DNA of 64,000 bases, taken from NCBI GenBank assembly GCA_017608625.1, contig JAFCFN010000003.1, positions 3,068 to 67,067 of the forward strand, written 5' to 3'. Origin of the DNA: Candidatus Woesearchaeota archaeon (GTDB lineage Archaea; Nanobdellota; Nanobdellia; Woesearchaeales; JAFCFN01). The translations under genes were made by a program, and so were the position numbers. Positions 28,293 to 63,522 of the stretch are shown here, in pieces. Position 1 is the first letter of the stretch, and every line of letters begins with the position of its first letter. The notes under the pieces are model-generated. The model was not told the DNA's origin, searched no databases, and worked only from the letters and a program-made list of their open reading frames with translations.

Positions 28293-28688
28293 ATGAAAAA
28301 ATTTATACTTAAAGATGGAAAGCTTATTAGTCTCCCAGAGCCAAACAAAGATTATCCTAATAAAAAATTAGATCGAGAAACTTTGGGAGAAATACTAGAT
28401 GATCTATGTGCAATAAATGCTGTTTTGGAGCATTGTGGTACTCTTTTGGATCTAAAAGTAAAAGATCCTGACTACTTAAATCCAACACTTTTTACTGAAG
28501 GTTCTGGATGTGGCCAAACATATAGAGAGTACCTTGAACAAATAAAATACGCCCTTGAGAATGGAATAAAGAGAAAAAGTTTCAGCAATGAAGATATACA
28601 AATTCTACGAGGTGTAAGAGCCCCCTATATAGATTCAGAGGGAATTACAAAAAAACTAGATTTTAACAAATCAAAGTACGGAATTTAA
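28293..28688 (+). CDS. Hypothetical protein
   Basis: ORF only. Divergent from the r-protein operon. No recognisable motif. Confidence 0.35.
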   Translation: MKKFILKDGKLISLPEPNKDYPNKKLDRETLGEILDDLCAINAVLEHCGTLLDLKVKDPDYLNPTLFTEGSGCGQTYREYLEQIKYALENGIKRKSFSNEDIQILRGVRAPYIDSEGITKKLDFNKSKYGI

Positions 28689-30010
28689 TTTTTCTTTTCA
28701 TTCTTTTTCTTATCTTTATTCAAATGAAATGTCTTTCTCACACTATAATTAACAGGGTTTTTAATCTTAGAACAAAGATTATCTGGCTTGCAAACACCAA
28801 TCTCTTTATAGTAAAGATTATTCGCACAATTTGGAGGCAAAACCTTTTTCTTGTGATTTTTATGATATTTTATTTGACTCATTAAATAGCCGTCACTTAG
28901 CGGTGTGCTATTTTTTTTATTCCATTCTCTGAGAAATTTTTCCATCTGTTCGTAATCCCAACCAAGACTTGATAAAAAATTAATCAAAATAAACAATGCT
29001 CTTTTTCTTCCATCTTCCAAACCTTTCAAAATCAATTTAATACACGGAGGGAAGAACTGCTCTTGAACAGCTTTTACAGGCACATTAAATTCTTTTGCAT
29101 TTTTAATACCTAAATTTTCTTCTTTTATATTAAAATCAAAAGCCTGTACAATTAGTTGTTTTGCCTCACCCTTAGTTACATTACTCCTTTCTAAAAAATG
29201 TCTTTCGACTTTAACATTTTCTGGCTTTGCTTTTTCTTTATTAAACTCCAAAACTTCATCAAGAGAAATTGGCAAAGAGATTAAACCGGATTTTTCATTA
29301 AAACAATAAGGCATTCTATAAAGATGTCTTTTAGAAATCAAAATAGTATCAATATCTACTAAGGAAAAAGGATCTAATTCATTATTTATGATTATTTCAT
29401 TAAATTTTTTCCCACTTTTCTTCATCAATTCTCTAATGTCATATTTTTTTAAAATTTCCTTAGCTAAGTGCTTTCTTACCATCTCTTTCAAATAAGCAGC
29501 TATCTTTCTCGGTCCATCTGGATATAATAATCTTGTTTCTTTGTCATAAACTTTATCAGGAAAAGCTTCGAATGGCACACCAATATGAAAACCCTTGTTC
29601 CCAGAAAATTTGCAAGAAACACTTTTAATGCCATAATACTTTAATGCTTTGATTATTAAATCAGCAGCTATTTTACTAAGCTCTAGATCACAGCTATCTA
29701 CATCCAAAACCAAATCCCAACCTTTTCTTAATGAATTCAACTCTTTTTCTTTCATATGTGTATCTATTTGTAATGGATTACTCCATAACTCTTCAGAAGC
29801 ATGAAAAGAGGTTGCACCCTGTTTAGCTAACTCCAGTATATCTCCTTCATGTTGTAATGTATCAGGCCTTTTTCCAAAACCTTTATTTCCATATTTAACT
29901 GCAATTTCTCTATCCTTCGCATTAGCTAGAATAGCCTTTTGTACATCCTTTCTTTTATAGTATTTTAGAAGAGTGCTTAATGTTAACATATTTATAACTA
30001 AGAATAACAA
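28685..30010 (-). CDS. DNA primase, fused small-subunit catalytic domain (PriS) and large-subunit Fe-S C-terminal domain (PriL-CTD)
   Basis: PriS motifs LVLDVDSCD (DxD) and FSGNKGFHIGV (SGxRG[YF]H). C-terminal FFPPCIKLILKG plus Cys at PPNCANN, GVCKPDNLC matches the PriL 4-Cys Fe-S domain. Confidence 0.75.
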   Translation of the reverse strand: MLFLVINMLTLSTLLKYYKRKDVQKAILANAKDREIAVKYGNKGFGKRPDTLQHEGDILELAKQGATSFHASEELWSNPLQIDTHMKEKELNSLRKGWDLVLDVDSCDLELSKIAADLIIKALKYYGIKSVSCKFSGNKGFHIGVPFEAFPDKVYDKETRLLYPDGPRKIAAYLKEMVRKHLAKEILKKYDIRELMKKSGKKFNEIIINNELDPFSLVDIDTILISKRHLYRMPYCFNEKSGLISLPISLDEVLEFNKEKAKPENVKVERHFLERSNVTKGEAKQLIVQAFDFNIKEENLGIKNAKEFNVPVKAVQEQFFPPCIKLILKGLEDGRKRALFILINFLSSLGWDYEQMEKFLREWNKKNSTPLSDGYLMSQIKYHKNHKKKVLPPNCANNLYYKEIGVCKPDNLCSKIKNPVNYSVRKTFHLNKDKKKNEKKN

Positions 30011-32329: not shown

Positions 32330-33187
32330 ATGTTGAAAAATCAGATTAAAACAGTTTTTTTCTTAGCACTGCTCACTGCTTTATTATTAGGTGTTGGCCA
32401 TTTAATAGCTGGAAGAAATGGCTTAACAATAGCTCTGTTCTTTGCAATTATTATGAATTTTAGTGCTTATTGGTGGTCTGATAAAATTGTTTTAGCAATG
32501 TATAGAGCAAAGCCAGTAACAAAAAATCAAGCACCAAAATTATACAAAATAGTAAAAGAAGTAAGTCAAATGGCAAAAGTACCAATGCCCAAGATTTATA
32601 TTATTCCCACTATGCATAGTAACGCATTCGCAACTGGCAGATCACCAAAACACGCAGCTATTGCATGTACCTTAGGCATTCTTAATTTGCTTAATGAAAA
32701 AGAGTTAAAAGGAGTAATCGCCCATGAAATTTCTCACATTAAAAATAGAGATATTTTAATTTCATCAATTGCAGCAACAATAGCAGGAGTCATATCTTAT
32801 ATTGCAATGATAGCAAGATGGACAGCTATTTTTGGAGGATTTGGAGGCAGAGATAGAGATGGAGGAAATATTTTTGAATTGCTAGTTTTAGCAATAGTAA
32901 CACCAATAATTGCAACTTTAATTCAACTAGCAATATCAAGATCAAGAGAGTATTTAGCAGATGAATCAGCAGCAAGAATACTAAAAGATGGATCAGGACT
33001 AGCTTCAGCCTTAGCAAAACTCTCTGCAGATATAAAACAAAAACCCCTAAGAGCAATGTCAACAACAGAAAGCACAGCACATCTATTTATAGCAAATCCT
33101 TTTAGAGGTGGAGGATTAGTTACCTTGTTCATGACCCATCCACCGATAGAGAAAAGAATTGCTAGACTAAAAGAACTTAAGTTCTAA
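32330..33187 (+). CDS. htpX: HtpX-family M48 zinc metalloprotease
   Basis: Four TM helices. HEISHIKNRD (HExxH). Overall HtpX layout. Confidence 0.85.
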   Translation: MLKNQIKTVFFLALLTALLLGVGHLIAGRNGLTIALFFAIIMNFSAYWWSDKIVLAMYRAKPVTKNQAPKLYKIVKEVSQMAKVPMPKIYIIPTMHSNAFATGRSPKHAAIACTLGILNLLNEKELKGVIAHEISHIKNRDILISSIAATIAGVISYIAMIARWTAIFGGFGGRDRDGGNIFELLVLAIVTPIIATLIQLAISRSREYLADESAARILKDGSGLASALAKLSADIKQKPLRAMSTTESTAHLFIANPFRGGGLVTLFMTHPPIEKRIARLKELKF

Positions 33188-35388
33188 TCTTTATATTCCT
33201 TCTCAACAACGTCTTTAATTGCCCTAGCTTTCTTTGGCCCTATTCCTTCTACTTTTTCTAATTGCTCTTCCTTAGCATTAATTATTTTTCTAACAGTTTT
33301 AAATTTTCTTAATAAAGGCCTTGCTAAGCCTATACCAATCCCAGGCAAACTAGAAATAAAATACTCTTGCTGCTCTTTCAATGTCATTGGCTTCTTGCTT
33401 CCATGAGGGCTAAACTCCCTGCCAATCTCTTCTTGCTCCCTTTTAGCTATCAAATACAAATAAGCTCCAGTTTCCTTATAGTTTCTTGAAAACAAAATAG
33501 GAACACCATAATCGATTGCTATTGAGCTTAACACACCTCTGATAGCATTAGGATGGACATTTCTGATGGAATAAATATCCTCCTCTCCTTCAACAATTAA
33601 CAATGGCCTTTCAAAATTATTCTTTAATTCTTTGATCTGCTGTAATAGTCTTCCATTAACTAAACTATTGACAAAATCACTAACTGTTTTAAACTCAACA
33701 CCAACCCTGCCACTCAATATATAATCTCCAATATCTAATTTCTCAAGCTTAATTTCAACCCCCAAATCAATCAATTCTTTAACAACCTTGTTTGGTTTTT
33801 CCCTGTAATCAACAAATACTATTATTTTATCATCAGGAATAAAAGAATTCAGTGTAACTTCCTTTTTCTTTAAAGCAAGTTTGCTCTTCAAATTTTCCAA
33901 AATTCTGTACATTCTTTTCTCTTTGTGATGTGCAACCCATCTATAAGCAACATCTCTTGTTCCCTCTGTCATTAAAATAATAACTCTTCCTTTTTCCAAT
34001 CTACCTGTTCTACCTTTTCTTTGAATAGTCCTAATTGCAGAAGGAATTGGTTCATAAAAAATAACAAGATCAACCTTTGGAATATCTAAACCTTCTTCAC
34101 CAATAGATGTACAGCATAATACATTAAATTTTCCATCTCTGAATTCTTCTAATACCTTTTTCTGATCTCTTTGACTTAAACCAGTTCCTTGTTTTTTTAA
34201 TTGCCCTACAAATATCTTTGCCTTAACACCTTTAATACTATTCAACTTATTTTGAATATCAATTACATTGTCCCTGTACTGATTAAAGACAATTATTTTG
34301 ATGTTGCTATTGCTCCTAACTTCTTTTTCAACAATTTTTTGCAACTCAATTAATTTTGGATGCTCTACTTTTTCTTTATATAACTGCTCAACTTTAACAA
34401 ATGCTTTTTTAAAATTAACATCTTCTGTAATGTTTTTAGATGCCTTTACTTTACCCTTACTTGCTTCGCTCATTAATTTCTCAAAATATCTATACAATGC
34501 AACTATTCCTTGTGTTTCTAATAACTCTAAAGCATAATAAATCTTAAAAACCTCTGCCAACAAAGAAATTCCTTGCCACAAAACAACATTCTTTTCTCCT
34601 CTAGCTATTCTTCCTGATAAGGCTCCTTGCATAGCCAACAACTCTTTCTTGCTTATGGAGGAGATATTAGTACTTCTTACAATTTTCAGTTCTTTTAATT
34701 TTTTCAGTCTATCTTTTAAAAAATCCTTCAAACATTTCTGCACATCCAAAAAAGGAGCAGGCAGTTTAACAGTTCTCCACTCCATCCTGATTTCTTGAAT
34801 ATAAGGTTGCACATCTAAGCTACTATAAGTTCTTGCCTCAATAGCTTCTATAAACAAATTAGAACAAATCTCTTTTATCTTCTCTAAATCAGAGCCAGGA
34901 GAAGCAGTTAAAGCAATGATTCTTGGATATTTTGCTAGTTTTTGATATTGTTTAGCAACAAAAACATAAGCATAATCACCAACAGCCCTATGCGCTTCAT
35001 CTACACCTAATAAAGAAACATCCTCCAAATTAATTCGTCTGCTTATAATATCATTCTCCAAACCTTGAGGAGTTGAGAAAATAATAGTTGCTTTTTTCCA
35101 TAACTCAGCTCTTTTTTCAGGCTTAACAGCACCTGTAAAAATAGCATATTTTTCTTTATCAAGATCAAAATGTTTTAGAAAAACCTGATAATACTGCTCT
35201 ATAAGAGGTCTTGTTGGACCAATAAATAATATTTTGCTTTTGGGATATAACTTTAGTCTATGGCTAGCCAACATTAAAAAGATAGCAGTCTTACCCATCC
35301 CAGTTGGCAATACAACTAAAGTATTTTTACTAGTACAGGTAGCTAGAATAGTCTCCTGATACAATCTAGGTTTGAAATTCTTGATCAT
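33184..35388 (-). CDS. hef: Hef-like helicase-nuclease (FANCM/XPF family): DEAH helicase plus ERCC4 nuclease-like domain plus HhH2
   Basis: VLPTGMGKT Walker A, VDEAHRAVG, QRKGRTGR motif VI. C-terminal VDYREKPNKV...VEFKTVSDF ERCC4-like (the ERK motif appears altered to EFK), then GIGIGLARPLL and IEGIGPKKA HhH pair. Confidence 0.8.
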   Translation of the reverse strand: MIKNFKPRLYQETILATCTSKNTLVVLPTGMGKTAIFLMLASHRLKLYPKSKILFIGPTRPLIEQYYQVFLKHFDLDKEKYAIFTGAVKPEKRAELWKKATIIFSTPQGLENDIISRRINLEDVSLLGVDEAHRAVGDYAYVFVAKQYQKLAKYPRIIALTASPGSDLEKIKEICSNLFIEAIEARTYSSLDVQPYIQEIRMEWRTVKLPAPFLDVQKCLKDFLKDRLKKLKELKIVRSTNISSISKKELLAMQGALSGRIARGEKNVVLWQGISLLAEVFKIYYALELLETQGIVALYRYFEKLMSEASKGKVKASKNITEDVNFKKAFVKVEQLYKEKVEHPKLIELQKIVEKEVRSNSNIKIIVFNQYRDNVIDIQNKLNSIKGVKAKIFVGQLKKQGTGLSQRDQKKVLEEFRDGKFNVLCCTSIGEEGLDIPKVDLVIFYEPIPSAIRTIQRKGRTGRLEKGRVIILMTEGTRDVAYRWVAHHKEKRMYRILENLKSKLALKKKEVTLNSFIPDDKIIVFVDYREKPNKVVKELIDLGVEIKLEKLDIGDYILSGRVGVEFKTVSDFVNSLVNGRLLQQIKELKNNFERPLLIVEGEEDIYSIRNVHPNAIRGVLSSIAIDYGVPILFSRNYKETGAYLYLIAKREQEEIGREFSPHGSKKPMTLKEQQEYFISSLPGIGIGLARPLLRKFKTVRKIINAKEEQLEKVEGIGPKKARAIKDVVEKEYKD

Positions 35389-36978: not shown

Positions 36979-37266
36979 GTGGTTAGCATGTTAAGATTAA
37001 AGAAAATATCTGAAACATATGATATGAAGGTTTTTACTGATGATGGAGAATTTTTTGGAGAAGTAGAAGAGAGTATTCTGACAAAAAATAAAGTATCTGG
37101 TTGGAGAATAAAAGCAACAAAAAACTCTTTCTTAAGCAAAGTGCTTGGTTCAGCAAAAGGAGTTATTGTACCTCACCAACTAGTTAAATCAGTTGGAGAT
37201 ATAATGATAATCTCAAAAGCAGCTGTCCCAAGTTATGAAGCAGAAGAAGAAAAAGCTGTCGAATAA
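36979..37266 (+). CDS. Small PRC-barrel-like protein
   Basis: About 90 aa with KVFTDDGEFFGEVEESILTKNKVSGWRI...GVIVPHQLVKSVGDIMII, typical of archaeal PRC barrel proteins. Confidence 0.45.
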   Translation: MVSMLRLKKISETYDMKVFTDDGEFFGEVEESILTKNKVSGWRIKATKNSFLSKVLGSAKGVIVPHQLVKSVGDIMIISKAAVPSYEAEEEKAVE

Positions 37267-37301
37267 AATTTATTAATTCTTTCTTTTTCATTATTTAATA
37301 T

Positions 37302-37455
37302 ACGGCTGTGATCTAGTGACCTGTAAGCTATTAAGCTTACTCGCTAGAAGCAAGATTCGAGCTTCCCATTAGCCAAAAGCTAGAATAGAAAAAGCTCGCT
37401 ACCCGGGTTCGAACTAGCAAAGCTCAGCTTTGCTTTGAAACTCCCGGCAGCCGTA
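37302..37455 (+). tRNA. Putative tRNA-Gly(CCC) interrupted by three introns (D-loop, canonical 37/38, and T-loop)
   Basis: 7-bp acceptor stem ACGGCTG/CAGCCGT, T8, A14, discriminator A, downstream T-tract. T-stem CCGGG(37403-07)/CCCGG(37443-47) abuts the 3' acceptor strand, with TTCGAAC after the T-stem 5' strand. Anticodon stem CGAGC(37358-62)/GCTCG(37394-98) with loop TTCCCA|intron|A. D-stem ATCT(37311-14)/AGAT(37353-56). Confidence 0.5.
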
Positions 37456-37469
37456 TATTTTCTTTACCT

Positions 37470-37680: not shown

Positions 37681-38424
37681 TTATTCATTCTCAACTCTTG
37701 GAGCCAAAATAAAACTCAATAACATTTTGTCAACAGCTTTAAAATCCAATCTCAAAGGATAATCATTATTGAATAAAATTGAAACCTTTTCAGCTAGTTT
37801 TCCTCCAATAACCATCTTTTTTAAATACTCTATACTATATTTAGCTTTAATCTTTCCAGACTCTTTCATATTGATCTGAGTATCTACATCTTGTTTAACT
37901 TCAATACTGGCTTTGCTTAACTCTCCTTGAGCCTGTATTGTAAATTTCTTTGGCTCAGCAATAAAACTTACACTCTCTCCAACAATATCAGCATCATCTA
38001 TTGCATCCATTAAAATAGATGAATTAGTTTTAATCTCTACTGGGAAGCTTAATTCGGGTATTTTCTGTTCTTTTTCTTCCAAATCAATTACTGGTAAAAA
38101 GAATGTTCTTATTGTATTACTTTTTAACTGGATCTTTAGTCTGTTCTCAACCAACTCCAAGCTTAAAATATCATTCGCCTTAGCTCTCTTTAAAATCTGC
38201 TTTAAATTATTCAAATTTATTCCTATCTCAATCTCCTTCTCAACATTATACTCGCTAAAAGAAGAGCTAAGTAACTTAAAAATAACCATTGCAACATTAG
38301 CAGGATCCATTGCAACTAGCTCTACAGCAGAAGGAGTTATCTTAAATCTTCCCTCATTAACTAACTCAGATATAATAGCTACACTCTCTTTAAGATATTT
38401 AGGTTCAATTAAAACTAGCTTCAT
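37681..38424 (-). CDS. pcn: DNA polymerase sliding clamp PCNA
   Basis: 247 aa with two repeated beta-alpha domains, a PCNA-length interdomain linker and C-terminal tail. Confidence 0.85.
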   Translation of the reverse strand: MKLVLIEPKYLKESVAIISELVNEGRFKITPSAVELVAMDPANVAMVIFKLLSSSFSEYNVEKEIEIGINLNNLKQILKRAKANDILSLELVENRLKIQLKSNTIRTFFLPVIDLEEKEQKIPELSFPVEIKTNSSILMDAIDDADIVGESVSFIAEPKKFTIQAQGELSKASIEVKQDVDTQINMKESGKIKAKYSIEYLKKMVIGGKLAEKVSILFNNDYPLRLDFKAVDKMLLSFILAPRVENE

Positions 38425-38476: not shown

Positions 38477-39817
38477 CTAAACCAACTTTAATCTTTCTCC
38501 ATTATGAAGCAAATGTACTGTTTTGCCTTTTTTATACCCCAATTCAACAGCAAGGTCAATTAAACCCTGTTTTTTCTCATCATCAGCATGAGCAGGAATT
38601 ATGTGTTCTGGTTTTATCATTTCTAATAAATCTCTATCATCTTCCCTAGCAGCATGGCCAGAAACATGAACATCAGTAAATATCCTAACTCCTAACTTCT
38701 TCAAACTTTTTTCTAAATGTTCTCTATTCTGAATATTTAGTTTTGTTGGAATTACCCTGCAAGAAAATACAACAATATCTCCTGGATAAAGATTGAATGG
38801 CAATTCTTTACTAGCTATTCCTGATAAAACAGCCTTTGGCTCTCCTTGATGACCTGTTACAATTAGTAGATACTTTTCTCTTCCACGTTTTTCTATCTTC
38901 TTTAGCTTTTTCTTGATCTGATTCCTGTACTTTACTATTTCTGCATCCTTTCTTAGATTAATAATTCCTATTTCTTCTCCAGCCCCAATATACTTGGCAA
39001 GACTCCTACCAAGAAATACAATTTTCCTTTTTAGCTGTTTTCCGCACTTTACTATACTTCTTAACCTTGCCAAGTGACTAGAAAATGTAGTTACTATAAT
39101 TAACTTACCTTTGGTTTCAGTACCTAATAAAACATCTCTTAGCATATCTTTTGCAACTAATTCAGAAGGAGTTTTCATCGCATCTTTACTGTATATTGAA
39201 TCAGAAATCAAAACCTTAACATTCTTCAACTCCTTTAGTCTCTCAAAATTAGGTTTTTTTCCTAAAGTTGGATTATTGTCAAATTTAAAGTCATTAGCAT
39301 AAAGAATTATTCCTTCTTTAGTGTGTACTGCTATCATCACTGTTTGAGGTGTGGAGTGTGTAATATTAATAAACTCAATTTTAATATTATCAGAAATTCT
39401 GTAAATGGAGTTTGTATTTAAAATCTTAATCTTATTTCTTAGATTTATTTTTTCATCCTTTAAAATAGACCTTAAAACAGCACCTGTATAAGGAGTACAA
39501 AGAATTTCAGCTTTTTTGAATCTATGCGCCAAAAAAGGTATTGCTCCTATGTGATCAAGATGAGCATGTGTGGTGATTATTGCCTTAACATCACCTTTTA
39601 GTTCTTTAATAACAGATACATCAGGCGCTGCTCCCACCTCTATTAATCTTGATCCAGATATAAATCTTAACTCCTCTCTTTCTTCTTCTGTATATTTAAT
39701 ATAATTTTCAAGATGTAACCCAAGATCAAGAATTATAATTTCATTATTAATTTTTATAGCAGTGCAATTCTTTCCAACTTCATTATAGCCACCAACTGTA
39801 CAGATTTCTATTGTCAT
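38477..39817 (-). CDS. rnj: Archaeal RNase J (metallo-beta-lactamase / beta-CASP ribonuclease)
   Basis: THAHLDHIGAIP (HxHxDH) MBL motif. About 450 aa beta-CASP layout with a C-terminal His motif DVHVSGHAARED. Confidence 0.8.
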   Translation of the reverse strand: MTIEICTVGGYNEVGKNCTAIKINNEIIILDLGLHLENYIKYTEEEREELRFISGSRLIEVGAAPDVSVIKELKGDVKAIITTHAHLDHIGAIPFLAHRFKKAEILCTPYTGAVLRSILKDEKINLRNKIKILNTNSIYRISDNIKIEFINITHSTPQTVMIAVHTKEGIILYANDFKFDNNPTLGKKPNFERLKELKNVKVLISDSIYSKDAMKTPSELVAKDMLRDVLLGTETKGKLIIVTTFSSHLARLRSIVKCGKQLKRKIVFLGRSLAKYIGAGEEIGIINLRKDAEIVKYRNQIKKKLKKIEKRGREKYLLIVTGHQGEPKAVLSGIASKELPFNLYPGDIVVFSCRVIPTKLNIQNREHLEKSLKKLGVRIFTDVHVSGHAAREDDRDLLEMIKPEHIIPAHADDEKKQGLIDLAVELGYKKGKTVHLLHNGERLKLV

Positions 39818-39825
39818 TTTATTGA

Positions 39826-39946
39826 TGCGGGGAGGAGGATTCGAACCCCCGTAGGCACTAAGCCAACAGGTCTCTTAGTAAAACACTTGAGCCTGTCCCG
39901 TTTGGCCAGTCCAGCTTGCTTGTAAACAAGTCTCCGGCATCCCCGC
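39826..39946 (-). tRNA. tRNA-Leu(CAA) with two introns (canonical 37/38 and D-loop)
   Basis: Minus strand reads GCGGGGA TG CCGG...ACAGG CTCAAG[intron]..CCTGT..GGCTTAGTGCC (long variable arm) GGGGGTTCGAATCCTCC TCCCCGC A. The 121-nt gene is longer than a mature ~87-nt tRNA-Leu, the difference being the introns. Confidence 0.7.
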
Positions 39947-47851: not shown

Positions 47852-50242
47852 ATGCCTGAGCAGATTAAACAAAAAGTGATAGAAGACGAGATGAAGCAAT
47901 CTTATCTAGACTATTCTATGTCTGTGATAGTTGGAAGAGCCTTACCAGATGCGAGGGATGGATTAAAACCAGTTCATAGAAGAGTTCTTTATACAATGCA
48001 TGAGCTTGGTTTATTGCATAATAAACCATTCAAAAAATCAGCAAACATTGTTGGTAATTGTATGGCTAAATACCACCCCCATGGAGATCTGCCAATTTAT
48101 GATGCTCTAGTTAGAATGGCTCAAGACTTCTCATTAAGATACCCTTTAGTTCAGGGCCAAGGAAATTTTGGAAGCATAGATGGTGATAAACCAGCTGCAA
48201 TGAGATACACAGAAGCAAGGTTAAGCAAACTTTCAGAAGAGCTATTACAAGATATAGAAAAGGATACTGTAAAATTTGTTCCTAATTTTGACAATTCAAC
48301 AAAAGAACCATCTGTGCTGCCATCAAAAGTTCCCAATCTACTTATTAATGGCTCATCAGGAATAGCTGTTGGAATGGCAACCAACATTCCTCCTCACAAT
48401 ATCTCTGAAATCTGTTCAGCAATCATTGCAACTATTGATAATCCAAATATAACAATAGATGAATTAATGCAGCTAGTTCCAGGACCAGATTTCCCAACAG
48501 CAGGCATTATAATGGGAGATTATGGAATCAAAGAAGCATACTCAACAGGCAGAGGAAAAATAATTCTAAGAGCAAAAGCAGAGATCCAAGCAAATAAGAT
48601 TATAGTAACAGAGATTCCCTATCAAGTTAATAAATCAGAACTAGTAGAAGAAATTGCTTCATTAGTAAGAGATAAAAAAATAACAGACATAACTGATTTA
48701 AGAGATGAGTCAGATAAAAAAGGAATAAGAATTGTAATTGAACTAAAAAAATCCTCAAATCCAGAACTAGTTCTTAAACAGCTCTACTCTCAAAGCAGAC
48801 TTCAAACAACTTTTGGAATGATCATGCTTGCATTAGTTGATAACAAACCAATCATTCTTAATTTGAAAAATTTAATTCAAAATTTTATTGACTATAGAAA
48901 AGAAATAATCACAAAAAGAACAGAGTTTGATTTGAAAAAAGCAACAGACAGGAAACACATACTAGAAGGTCTTATCATTGCTCTTAAGAATATAGACTCT
49001 ATAATTAAAATAATCAGATCATCGAAATCAATAGAGCAAGCCTCAAATACCTTAATTCAAAACTTCAGACTAACAAAAATACAGGCATCAGCAATATTAG
49101 ATATGAGGCTGCAGAAATTAACTTCCTTAGAACAAGATAAAATCTCAAAAGAATGTATAGATTTATCAAAAAAAATAGAAGAACTAAAATCAATTCTTGC
49201 ATCTCCTCAGAAAATCCTTAACATAATCAAAACAGAACTAGCATACTTAAAAGAGAACTATGGTGATCCTAGAAGAACGGAGATTACTCACGAGAAAATA
49301 GAAATAGAAGAAGAGGAATTAATCAAATCAGAAGATGTTGTTATAACAATAACACATGCAGGTTACATCAAAAGAATCCCGATCTCTAGTTATAGGCAAC
49401 AGAAAAGAGGGGGAAAAGGAATAATAGCAACAACAATGAAAGAGCAAGACTTTGTTGAGGATCTTTTTGTAGCAAACACCCTTAACAACATCTTATTCTT
49501 TACAGACAAGGGCAATGTTTACTCTTTGAAAGTTCATCAGATTCCTTCTACAAAAAGACAGGCAAGAGGTATTCCGATCATCAACTTATTGGATATTAAA
49601 GATCAGAAAATAACAGCTTCTATTCCAATAAAGGAATTTAAAGAAAATCTTTTTTTGGTTATGGCAACAAAAAAAGGTATAGTCAAAAAAACTCCATTGT
49701 CAGCATTTGAAAACATTAGAAGAACAGGCATAAAGGCAATTACATTGAATAATGATAACTTAATAAATGCTGTTTTGACAGATGGCAACCAGCAATTAGT
49801 GCTTGCAACAAAAAAAGGTATAGTCATTAAATTTAATGAAAGGGATGTCAGGCCAATGGGAAGAACAGCAGCAGGTGTAAGAGGCATTAAACTTAAAGCT
49901 GATGATTCTGTTATTGGTTTAGTTATTGCTAAGGATGAAGAAACTCTACTAACAATCACAGAAAATGGTTTTGGAAAAAGAACAAAAATAAGCGATTATA
50001 GACTAATATCAAGAGGAGGTTCTGGAGTACTCAATCTGAAAATAACATCTAAGAATGGTTTAGTAACAGGAATAAAAACAGTTACAGATAAAGATGAATT
50101 AATGTTGATTTCTCAAAAAGGCATTGCAATCAGGATTTCTGCAGGTGAAATTTCTGTAATGGGAAGAGTAACACAAGGAGTAAGAATAATGAAACTAGTT
50201 CCAGGAGATAAATTAATAGCTCTAGCTAAAATAGCCCAATAA
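47852..50242 (+). CDS. gyrA: DNA gyrase subunit A
   Basis: [29 protein letters not shown] with the active-site Tyr region. C-terminal beta-pinwheel repeats. Confidence 0.9.
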
Positions 50243-50999: not shown

Positions 51000-51390
51000 G
51001 TGGGGCACATACTTAACTTTCGCAGCTTTAGTTGTGAGGAAAGTCCGCCCACCATTGCGAAAGTTGCGTGATCATGCCGCAACTTGAGCTTAAAGGCCAC
51101 TTGTGAAAGCAAGTTGCAGAAATGCAAGGCAACGGCACAGACATGACACGGCCTTCAAAGTTGAGATGATATGGCGAATCAGCTGAGCAATTGGCTGAGA
51201 GCTAACCTATTGATGTCTTTGAAGGATGCGGTTAAACAGCCAGTCCTGGCCGGTGCAAGTTAAGTGAGCAAAGCTCACGATTACGCTTAGTAGAATGTTA
51301 AGGCAGTCTATTGTTGCCAAGCCATAAATCTGCAAGGCAGATTTATGGCTAAACAAGACTGACAAAAGGCGGCTTATTTTGCCCCACACA
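51000..51390 (+). ncRNA. rnpB: RNase P RNA (archaeal type A-like)
   Basis: GC-rich island in AT-rich DNA. GAGGAAAGTCCGCCC near the 5' end and ACAAAAGGCGGCTTAT near the 3' end (P4 pairing with GGGC-to-CGCC covariation). Terminal P1 helix TGGGGCA/TGCCCCA. TATA-like CTTTATAAA about 25 nt upstream. Rpp29 protein is present in the window. Confidence 0.85.
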
Positions 51391-63244: not shown

Positions 63245-63522
63245 AGTGGGCAAGCATGCCCAGAGATGGATATAATATTGCCCACCAGCTACCTTAACTC
63301 TTTCTTGATTCCGCTACCCCATAAGCATCAATTCAAATAGTTAGTGCTGCTCCATTCCTGGCCTGACACATTTCCTATAAGCATTGATCCTATGGGACAG
63401 AATCTCATAGTCCGAGTTAAGACCAGCGAGCAAAGCTTATACCTCTCTCCAGGCTTCGACCCCATGTAAAGCCCATTCATGGTTACAGGAGAGGGCTAAC
63501 CTCCCGGTCTAGCTTGCCCATG
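63245..63522 (-). ncRNA. ffs: Signal recognition particle RNA (7S/SRP RNA), minus strand
   Basis: GC-rich island. Minus-strand GTCAGGCCAGGAATGGAGCAGCACTAAC matches the conserved helix-8 motif GUCAGGUCCGGAAGGAAGCAGC. Terminal helix GGGCAAGC/GCTTGCCC. Confidence 0.7.

Follow-up and report, generated by a model that had tools for sequence, protein, structure and literature searches.

Introduction

In published accounts of archaeal tRNA splicing, bulge-helix-bulge (BHB) motifs are recognised by the endonuclease EndA and the exons are ligated by RtcB (PMC3239211, PMC4090602, PMC5829648). The closest described counterparts of the gene considered here come from the Thermoproteales (Pyrobaculum, Thermofilum and Caldivirga; Sugahara et al. 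2007/2008), for which the cited reports document tRNA genes carrying up to three BHB-type introns (PMC4033280, PMC8450103). The gene analysed in the present study, located in a 64-kb stretch of Woesearchaeota (DPANN) DNA hereafter called the window, resembles those genes in this number, in its non-canonical D- and T-arm insertion sites, in its relaxed BHB motifs and in being missed by standard scanners; fast intron turnover between related species, as these accounts portray it, is likewise common to both groups. At the same time, the host here is a mesophilic archaeon with an AT-rich genome, whereas the Thermoproteales are hyperthermophilic crenarchaeotes. The presumed EndA also differs, being (alpha-beta)2 in the Thermoproteales as described, whereas the enzyme expected here is the alpha4 type with an L3 insertion that has been reported for those DPANN lineages whose tRNA genes are heavily disrupted (PMC5829648).

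Within the DPANN, ARMAN-2 (Ca. Micrarchaeum), which has an epsilon2-type EndA, shares introns at position 59/60 with the window gene. Its 13-nt 59/60 intron, a relaxed hBH/BHL structure, was cleaved in vitro by DPANN EndA, and the genes described from ARMAN-2 have one intron or two, whereas three are proposed for the window gene (PMC3239211). Positions 20/21 and 59/60 are both listed as non-canonical intron sites (PMC4090602). In the Guillardia theta nucleomorph, too, tRNA genes with three introns are on record, and D- and T-arms there carry insertions; this system is eukaryotic and without evolutionary link to the present one, and its insertions are given there as 3-24 nt long, the splicing of the shortest being described as unknown (PMC4090602).

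Kaneta et al. (2018) reported that tRNA gene disruption is raised in DPANN, with one Woesearchaeota genome included in their survey, and took incomplete tRNA sets as a pointer to disrupted genes that had escaped identification and call for manual curation (PMC5829648). The window gene is a case of the hidden disrupted tRNA predicted in that survey; the gene itself, the 18/19 intron site and the comparison of 30 orthologues described below go beyond the findings for which the survey is cited here.

Locus and gene anatomy

The region 37302-37455 (+ strand, 154 nt) is overlapped by no ORF of at least 50 aa. Its neighbour on the same strand is a PRC-barrel ORF (36979-37266), and on the opposite strand lie a 66-aa ORF and the genes for PCNA (37681-38424) and an RNase J-type beta-CASP nuclease (38477-39817). 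In an initial annotation, made from the letters of the DNA, the region had been read as a putative tRNA-Gly(CCC) gene with three introns. This reading is upheld by the acceptance of the 71-nt spliced product by ARAGORN and by the existence of orthologues lacking each of the insertions, and the region is very probably a functional tRNA-Gly(CCC) gene with three introns, composed as follows:

37269-37276, + strand: TATA-like box TTTATTAA, -33 to -26 from the mature 5' end
37302-37318, + strand: exon 1 (nt 1-18), with acceptor strand ACGGCTG, U8, G9, D-stem ATCT and D-loop AGUG
37319-37349, + strand: D-loop insertion of 31 nt, proposed intron 1, separating G18 from G19 (ACCTGTAAGCTATTAAGCTTACTCGCTAGAA)
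37350-37368, + strand: exon 2 (nt 19-37), with GCA, D-stem AGAT, U26, CGAGC and loop UUCCCA, anticodon CCC
37369-37392, + strand: anticodon-loop insertion of 24 nt, proposed intron 2, at the canonical 37/38 position (TTAGCCAAAAGCTAGAATAGAAAA)
37393-37413, + strand: exon 3 (nt 38-59), with A38, GCTCG, variable loop CTAC, T-stem CCGGG and T-loop UUCGAA
37414-37441, + strand: T-loop insertion of 28 nt, proposed intron 3 at site 59/60 (CTAGCAAAGCTCAGCTTTGCTTTGAAAC), containing an 8-bp hairpin
37442-37455, + strand: exon 4 (nt 60-73), with U60, T-stem CCCGG, acceptor strand CAGCCGT and discriminator A73
37458-37461, + strand: oligo-T tract TTTT, 3 nt past the discriminator, a likely archaeal terminator

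The elements named in the initial annotation were all recovered where it had placed them, namely the 7-bp acceptor stem ACGGCTG/CAGCCGT with U8, A14 and the discriminator A; the anticodon stem CGAGC/GCTCG around TTCCCA...A with a 24-nt intron; the T-stem CCGGG/CCCGG and the motif GGTTCGAA, which abuts the 3' acceptor strand through the insertion; the 28-nt T-loop insertion folding as a hairpin; and the upstream box and downstream T-tract. The D-stem ATCT/AGAT stood as well; its interruption, given there as about 30 nt, was found to measure exactly 31 nt and to separate G18 from G19, a place in the D-loop rather than the stem. CCA is absent from the encoded 3' end.

The upstream box begins right behind the stop codon of the PRC-barrel ORF. 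Among the orthologues described below, upstream TATA-like hexamers are concentrated at -34 to -30 (16 of 24 hits), and T-rich trailers are found 3' of most of the genes. The TATA-box evidence is weak because the genome is AT-rich, and as expression signals of the gene the box and the T-tract are suggestive only.

The unspliced region folds as a four-way junction, with a 7-bp closing stem and three long arms, at -59.8 kcal/mol; shuffles of it averaged -38.3 +/- 3.9 kcal/mol (z = -5.5), and none of the 200 was as stable. In-silico removal of the three insertions resulted in a 71-nt product that was called tRNA-Gly(CCC) by ARAGORN at default stringency and was still recognised as such at 115% stringency. 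In this product 21/21 stem pairs are formed, and U8, A14, G18G19, U33, U54-U55-C56 and A73 are all present. When the 24-nt deletion (after A37) and the 28-nt deletion (after A59) were kept fixed, many D-loop deletions led to an ARAGORN call of tRNA-Gly(CCC), with the top scores going to those that create GG in the D-loop.

Elsewhere in the window, genes were found for archaeal RNase P RNA (51001-51386, +; Rfam 113.7 bits), archaeal SRP RNA (63248-63519, -; 159.9 bits), GyrA (47852-50242) and a Hef-like helicase-ERCC4 nuclease (33184-35388), together with a ribosomal-protein/SecY operon at approximately 13.2-27.9 kb. A 441-aa ORF (28685-30010, -) matches both the small-subunit (PF01896) and large-subunit (PF04104) primase domains and, judged by these matches, appears to encode a fused PriS-PriL primase.

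Orthologues and intron variation

A search with the PCNA protein led to 27 loci (53-83% identity) in genomes labelled Woesearchaeota or Nanoarchaeota and, in several cases, "uncultured Methanosarcinales". Taken with the archaeal RNase P and SRP RNAs noted above, these matches assign the window to an AT-rich DPANN archaeon of the Woesearchaeota; its contig is also present in JGI sample 3300033149. Thirty orthologues of the glycine gene were compared, 10 from PCNA/RNase J-syntenic Woesearchaeota loci and 20 from metagenomes, the latter retrieved by means of a search pattern that tolerates introns and is anchored on three blocks of exon sequence. In the ten syntenic loci the matches are confined to exon-like blocks, and total lengths range from 86 to 155 nt. 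The junctions were parsed by structure-aware enumeration; pairwise alignment to an intronless reference was rejected, as it misplaced D-arm insertions and, for example, split that of the window in two. The resulting distribution of putative introns was as follows:

No intron: 5 genes (L029, L031, L036, L038, L043)
One intron: 9 genes
Two introns: 10 genes
Three introns: 6 genes (window, L005, L028, L032, L033, L039)
Site 59/60: intron in 20 genes
Site 20/21: intron in 14 genes
Site 37/38: intron in 12 of the 30 genes, 18 being without it
Site 18/19: intron in 1 gene, that of the window

Thus, every one of the three insertion sites of the window gene is uninterrupted in many orthologues. The five other three-intron orthologues have insertions at 59/60 and 37/38 like the window gene and at 20/21 in place of 18/19, and their exons are intact. 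Exon 1 is identical or near-identical throughout the set. After splicing, all 30 products are 71-72 nt long and all are called tRNA-Gly(CCC). Covariation of the cloverleaf was evaluated over the 23 distinct spliced sequences, in which 96.7% of cells are paired and nine compensatory pairs occur; these values were reached in 0 of 500 shuffles, and slid controls were paired to approximately 40% at most. Covariation is likewise seen at the 20/21 introns, in the helix between exon and intron (AGCG/CGCU versus AGUG/CACU).

It was also considered that the resemblance to a tRNA gene might be fortuitous or that the gene might lie on the opposite strand, a reading to which we assign a negligible probability. 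A reverse-strand tRNA-Pro(GGG) with an intron is indeed reported by ARAGORN at 80% stringency; this candidate mirrors the Gly(CCC) gene and was therefore rejected, and U8, A14, G18G19, U33, the T-loop UUCGAAU, A73, the TATA box and the T-tract are correct on the + strand only. Chance is excluded by the 30 orthologues with their covariation.

Several features of the orthologues deserve mention in their own right. The first acceptor pair of a tRNA is usually G1:C72. In all 30 genes it is A1:U72, and A73, C2:G71 and G3:C70 are likewise invariant. The 59/60 introns of seven genes (L003, L004, L006, L007, L040, L042 and L044; an example is L004:6815-6919) are 33-35 nt long and have a common AAGCGAGC box, and on this sequence evidence they are assigned to one homologous intron family. 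The family is kept across syntenic genomes whose PCNA is just 67-68% identical to that of the window, and within it position 57 and its partner in the central helix covary (G57-C versus A57-U, the latter in L004).

At the other extreme of length, introns of 11-13 nt are found at 20/21 in L005, L006, L007, L037, L042, L044 and L046 and at 59/60 in L045, L046 and L028. A length of 11-13 nt is close to the minimum size of archaeal tRNA introns, and in these the loop directly closes the 4-bp exon-intron helix (BHL-like). The 59/60 introns of L045, L046, L028 and L047 (12-16 nt) have the same design as the cleaved ARMAN-2 intron.

A search for copies of the three introns of the window gene produced no significant match in the window and 47 loci, so these sequences give no sign of intron mobility, whereas intron transposition is described for the Thermoproteales in the reports cited above.

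Bulge-helix-bulge junctions

In the strict BHB register, cleavage occurs two nucleotides into the bulges flanking a 4-bp central helix, and under the null a central helix with 4/4 pairs is expected in 2.3% of cases, one with 3/4 in 13% and one with at least 3/4 in 15%. The check for such motifs proposed along with the initial reading was carried out at the three junctions, all of which fit the register, with 4/4 pairs for the D-loop, 3/4 for the anticodon loop and 4/4 for the T-loop. Since the junctions had been set by other criteria and the null expectation is low, this combination is very unlikely to be due to chance. Among 40 distinct introns across the orthologues, 25 score 4/4, 13 score 3/4 and two score 2/4.

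The T-loop intron has the central helix UUCG/UGAA (4/4), the bulges AAC and ACU, and the 5-bp T-stem as outer helix; the insertion itself forms the hairpin AGCAAAGC-TCA-GCTTTGCT. The uninterrupted T-loop of orthologues reads UUCGAAU (L012 and the five intronless genes), and that of L001 is uninterrupted too, which places the junction at A59|U60. This split is the best of the six possible ones in 20/20 genes with a T-loop intron. The anticodon intron has the central helix UUCC/AGAA (3/4), in which U32, U33 and C34 are paired with the intron and C35·A is a mismatch, the bulges CAU and AAA, and the 5-bp anticodon stem as outer helix.

The D-loop intron is the least secure of the three and the weakest point of the analysis, since it occurs in one genome, has no outer helix and an interrupted inner helix, and is open to competing registers. 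When junction pairs were enumerated under the conditions that the D-stem have 4 bp and the loop follow A-R-N(1-2)-GG-N(1-3)-A, one sole solution was obtained, with the exon end at 37318 and the intron end at 37349, leaving ATCT-AGTGGCA-AGAT; splicing at these points would give AGUGGCA, which is also the D-loop of L001, the closest relative (83% PCNA identity). In this 18/19 register the central helix is formed between C12-G15 and CUAG (CUAG/CUAG, 4/4 pairs), and the intron contains an internal 7-bp hairpin (GTAAGCT/AGCTTAC). The motif is a relaxed, HBh'-like BHB without outer helix, whose inner helix consists of 1 bp, a 2x2 loop and 7 bp. A pattern built on this junction found no match in the metagenomes, so no close relative with an 18/19 intron is represented there.

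The intron is located within an 8-bp helix (U11-A18/U40-A47) in which other 4-bp windows are also BHB-like, and the gene could be real with its D-loop insertion cut in another register of the D-arm helix, or left uncut, which we regard as unlikely. With a 5' cut past region position 19 and a 3' cut past 46, for example, the D-loop would become AGUGACAAGCA, and the mature tRNA would have an enlarged D-loop devoid of G18G19. Such registers are favoured by the lowest-energy fold, in which the 5' bulge (CCU) lies behind the 8-bp helix and not at G17|A18, and by the similarity of the alternative AGUG/CGCU helix, followed by AGA, to the 20/21 introns of relatives (AGYG/CRCU, then AAA). Moreover, their conformers are isoenergetic with the preferred one (-52.4 to -52.6 kcal/mol); as all lie within 0.2 kcal/mol, energy is uninformative for the choice of register. 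However, every alternative register destroys the G18-G19 dinucleotide, which is universally conserved in tRNA and is invariant in the spliced products of all 30 orthologues, whereas the 18/19 register alone restores it and reproduces the D-loop and D-stem spacing of L001, with a 4/4 central helix as well. For this reason the junction specifically at 18/19 is preferred and is considered probable, at a level somewhat below that of the three-intron reading as a whole, in which our confidence is high.

Detection by tRNA-finding programs

It had been anticipated that standard scanners would miss such a gene, which proved true for ARAGORN and the Rfam tRNA model. ARAGORN made no call on the unspliced region, with or without intron mode, down to 90% stringency, and the Rfam tRNA model (RF00005) gave no match to the unspliced gene either at the gathering score or at E <= 10; the permissive Rfam matches that did appear at E <= 10 (HrrF, snoZ5, mir-5890 and others) are far under their gathering scores and were discarded as chance. 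Intronless orthologues score 60-62 bits against the Rfam tRNA model (gathering score 29), and the two orthologues with the canonical intron alone score 47-53 bits; of the genes with short non-canonical introns, L037, L045 and L046 were submitted, and none of these three was detected by it. Additionally, the Gly(CCC) gene of L001 (L001:5275-5360, -), which has a 15-nt canonical intron, was mislabelled tRNA-Leu(CAA) by default ARAGORN, and the unspliced gene of L012 was labelled tRNA-Phe(AAA) in intron mode.

The failure of both programs on the locus might also be read as the mark of a decaying pseudogene, that is, of a former tRNA-Gly(CCC) that is no longer processed and whose function is supplied by another gene. 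The D-loop insertion, being lineage-specific, would fit this, and the data cover just 64 kb of the genome, so that a second intact tRNA-Gly(CCC) is possible. Against decay stand the defect-free exons, with 21/21 stem pairs and the conserved nucleotides intact, the BHB register of each insertion, the retained promoter and terminator signals, and the five other orthologues, which have three insertions in the same arms and equally intact exons. The pseudogene explanation is accordingly judged very improbable, and a functional gene with three introns remains the preferred reading.

A second disrupted tRNA gene of the window, located at 39826-39946 (-, 121 nt) directly upstream of the RNase J-like gene, was missed by ARAGORN and Rfam as well. 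It yields a class II tRNA-Leu(CAA) once two stretches are taken out, a 14-nt canonical intron and a D-loop insertion of approximately 21 nt (ACTTGTTTACAAGCAAGCTGG), the junction of the latter being ambiguous owing to an ACT repeat. Its syntenic counterparts are 107-199 nt long, match in the exon blocks alone, and none was called by ARAGORN; they include the following:

L002:1550-1674
L011:2329-2443
L010:3560-3722
L008:1010-1167
L006:1893-2052
L009:2194-2382
L017:2035-2141
L014:2131-2329

This variation in length indicates that the intron variability of the lineage is not confined to the glycine gene.

Proposed splicing pathway

The gene would be transcribed from its own TATA-type promoter into a precursor of approximately 154 nt, in which the three arms are each lengthened by an insertion; pairing of the insertion with the exon next to it would create a BHB or relaxed BHB. 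EndA would then cut each bulge behind its second nucleotide, presumably at exactly the bonds given above, and an RtcB-type ligase would join the exons. With the removal of 31 nt (G18|G19), 24 nt (A37|A38) and 28 nt (A59|U60), a 71-nt tRNA would result, to which CCA would be added. We infer the EndA and RtcB step, since a Pfam scan of 71 window ORFs gave no match to EndA (tRNA_int_endo) or RtcB. The relaxed motifs, namely the HBh'-like D-loop intron of the window gene and the loop-closed 11-18-nt mini-introns of its relatives, imply that a broad-specificity EndA should be encoded in the genome to which the window belongs. This mechanism is nothing new in kind and fits the established EndA/BHB model.

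Significance

The novelty of these findings is modest, as three-intron archaeal tRNAs and the disruption of DPANN tRNA genes are already known from the publications discussed in the Introduction. The intron site G18|G19 may be new to the literature, and so may such a density of variation in the presence and absence of introns within a single orthologous gene. The distribution of zero to three introns over four sites of one orthologous gene in 30 genomes, together with the 11-13-nt mini-introns and the split of G18-G19, led us to the tentative proposal, for which we rate the chances at slightly under even, that tRNA introns turn over rapidly in the Woesearchaeales, which would form a second hot spot of this kind beside the Thermoproteales.

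As ARAGORN and the Rfam tRNA model missed two of the four tRNA genes of the 64-kb window, and miss or mislabel such genes in its relatives, the tRNA complements listed for DPANN archaea, and the codon-usage inferences and completeness estimates made for them, are likely to be biased. In complete Nanobdellota genomes, "missing" tRNAs have been tentatively put down to split tRNAs or loss (bioRxiv 10.64898/2026.05.13.725050); if the hot-spot pattern is general, they could be undetected multi-intron genes. The series of 30 orthologues is, moreover, a compact natural data set for the gain, loss and constraint of BHB introns.
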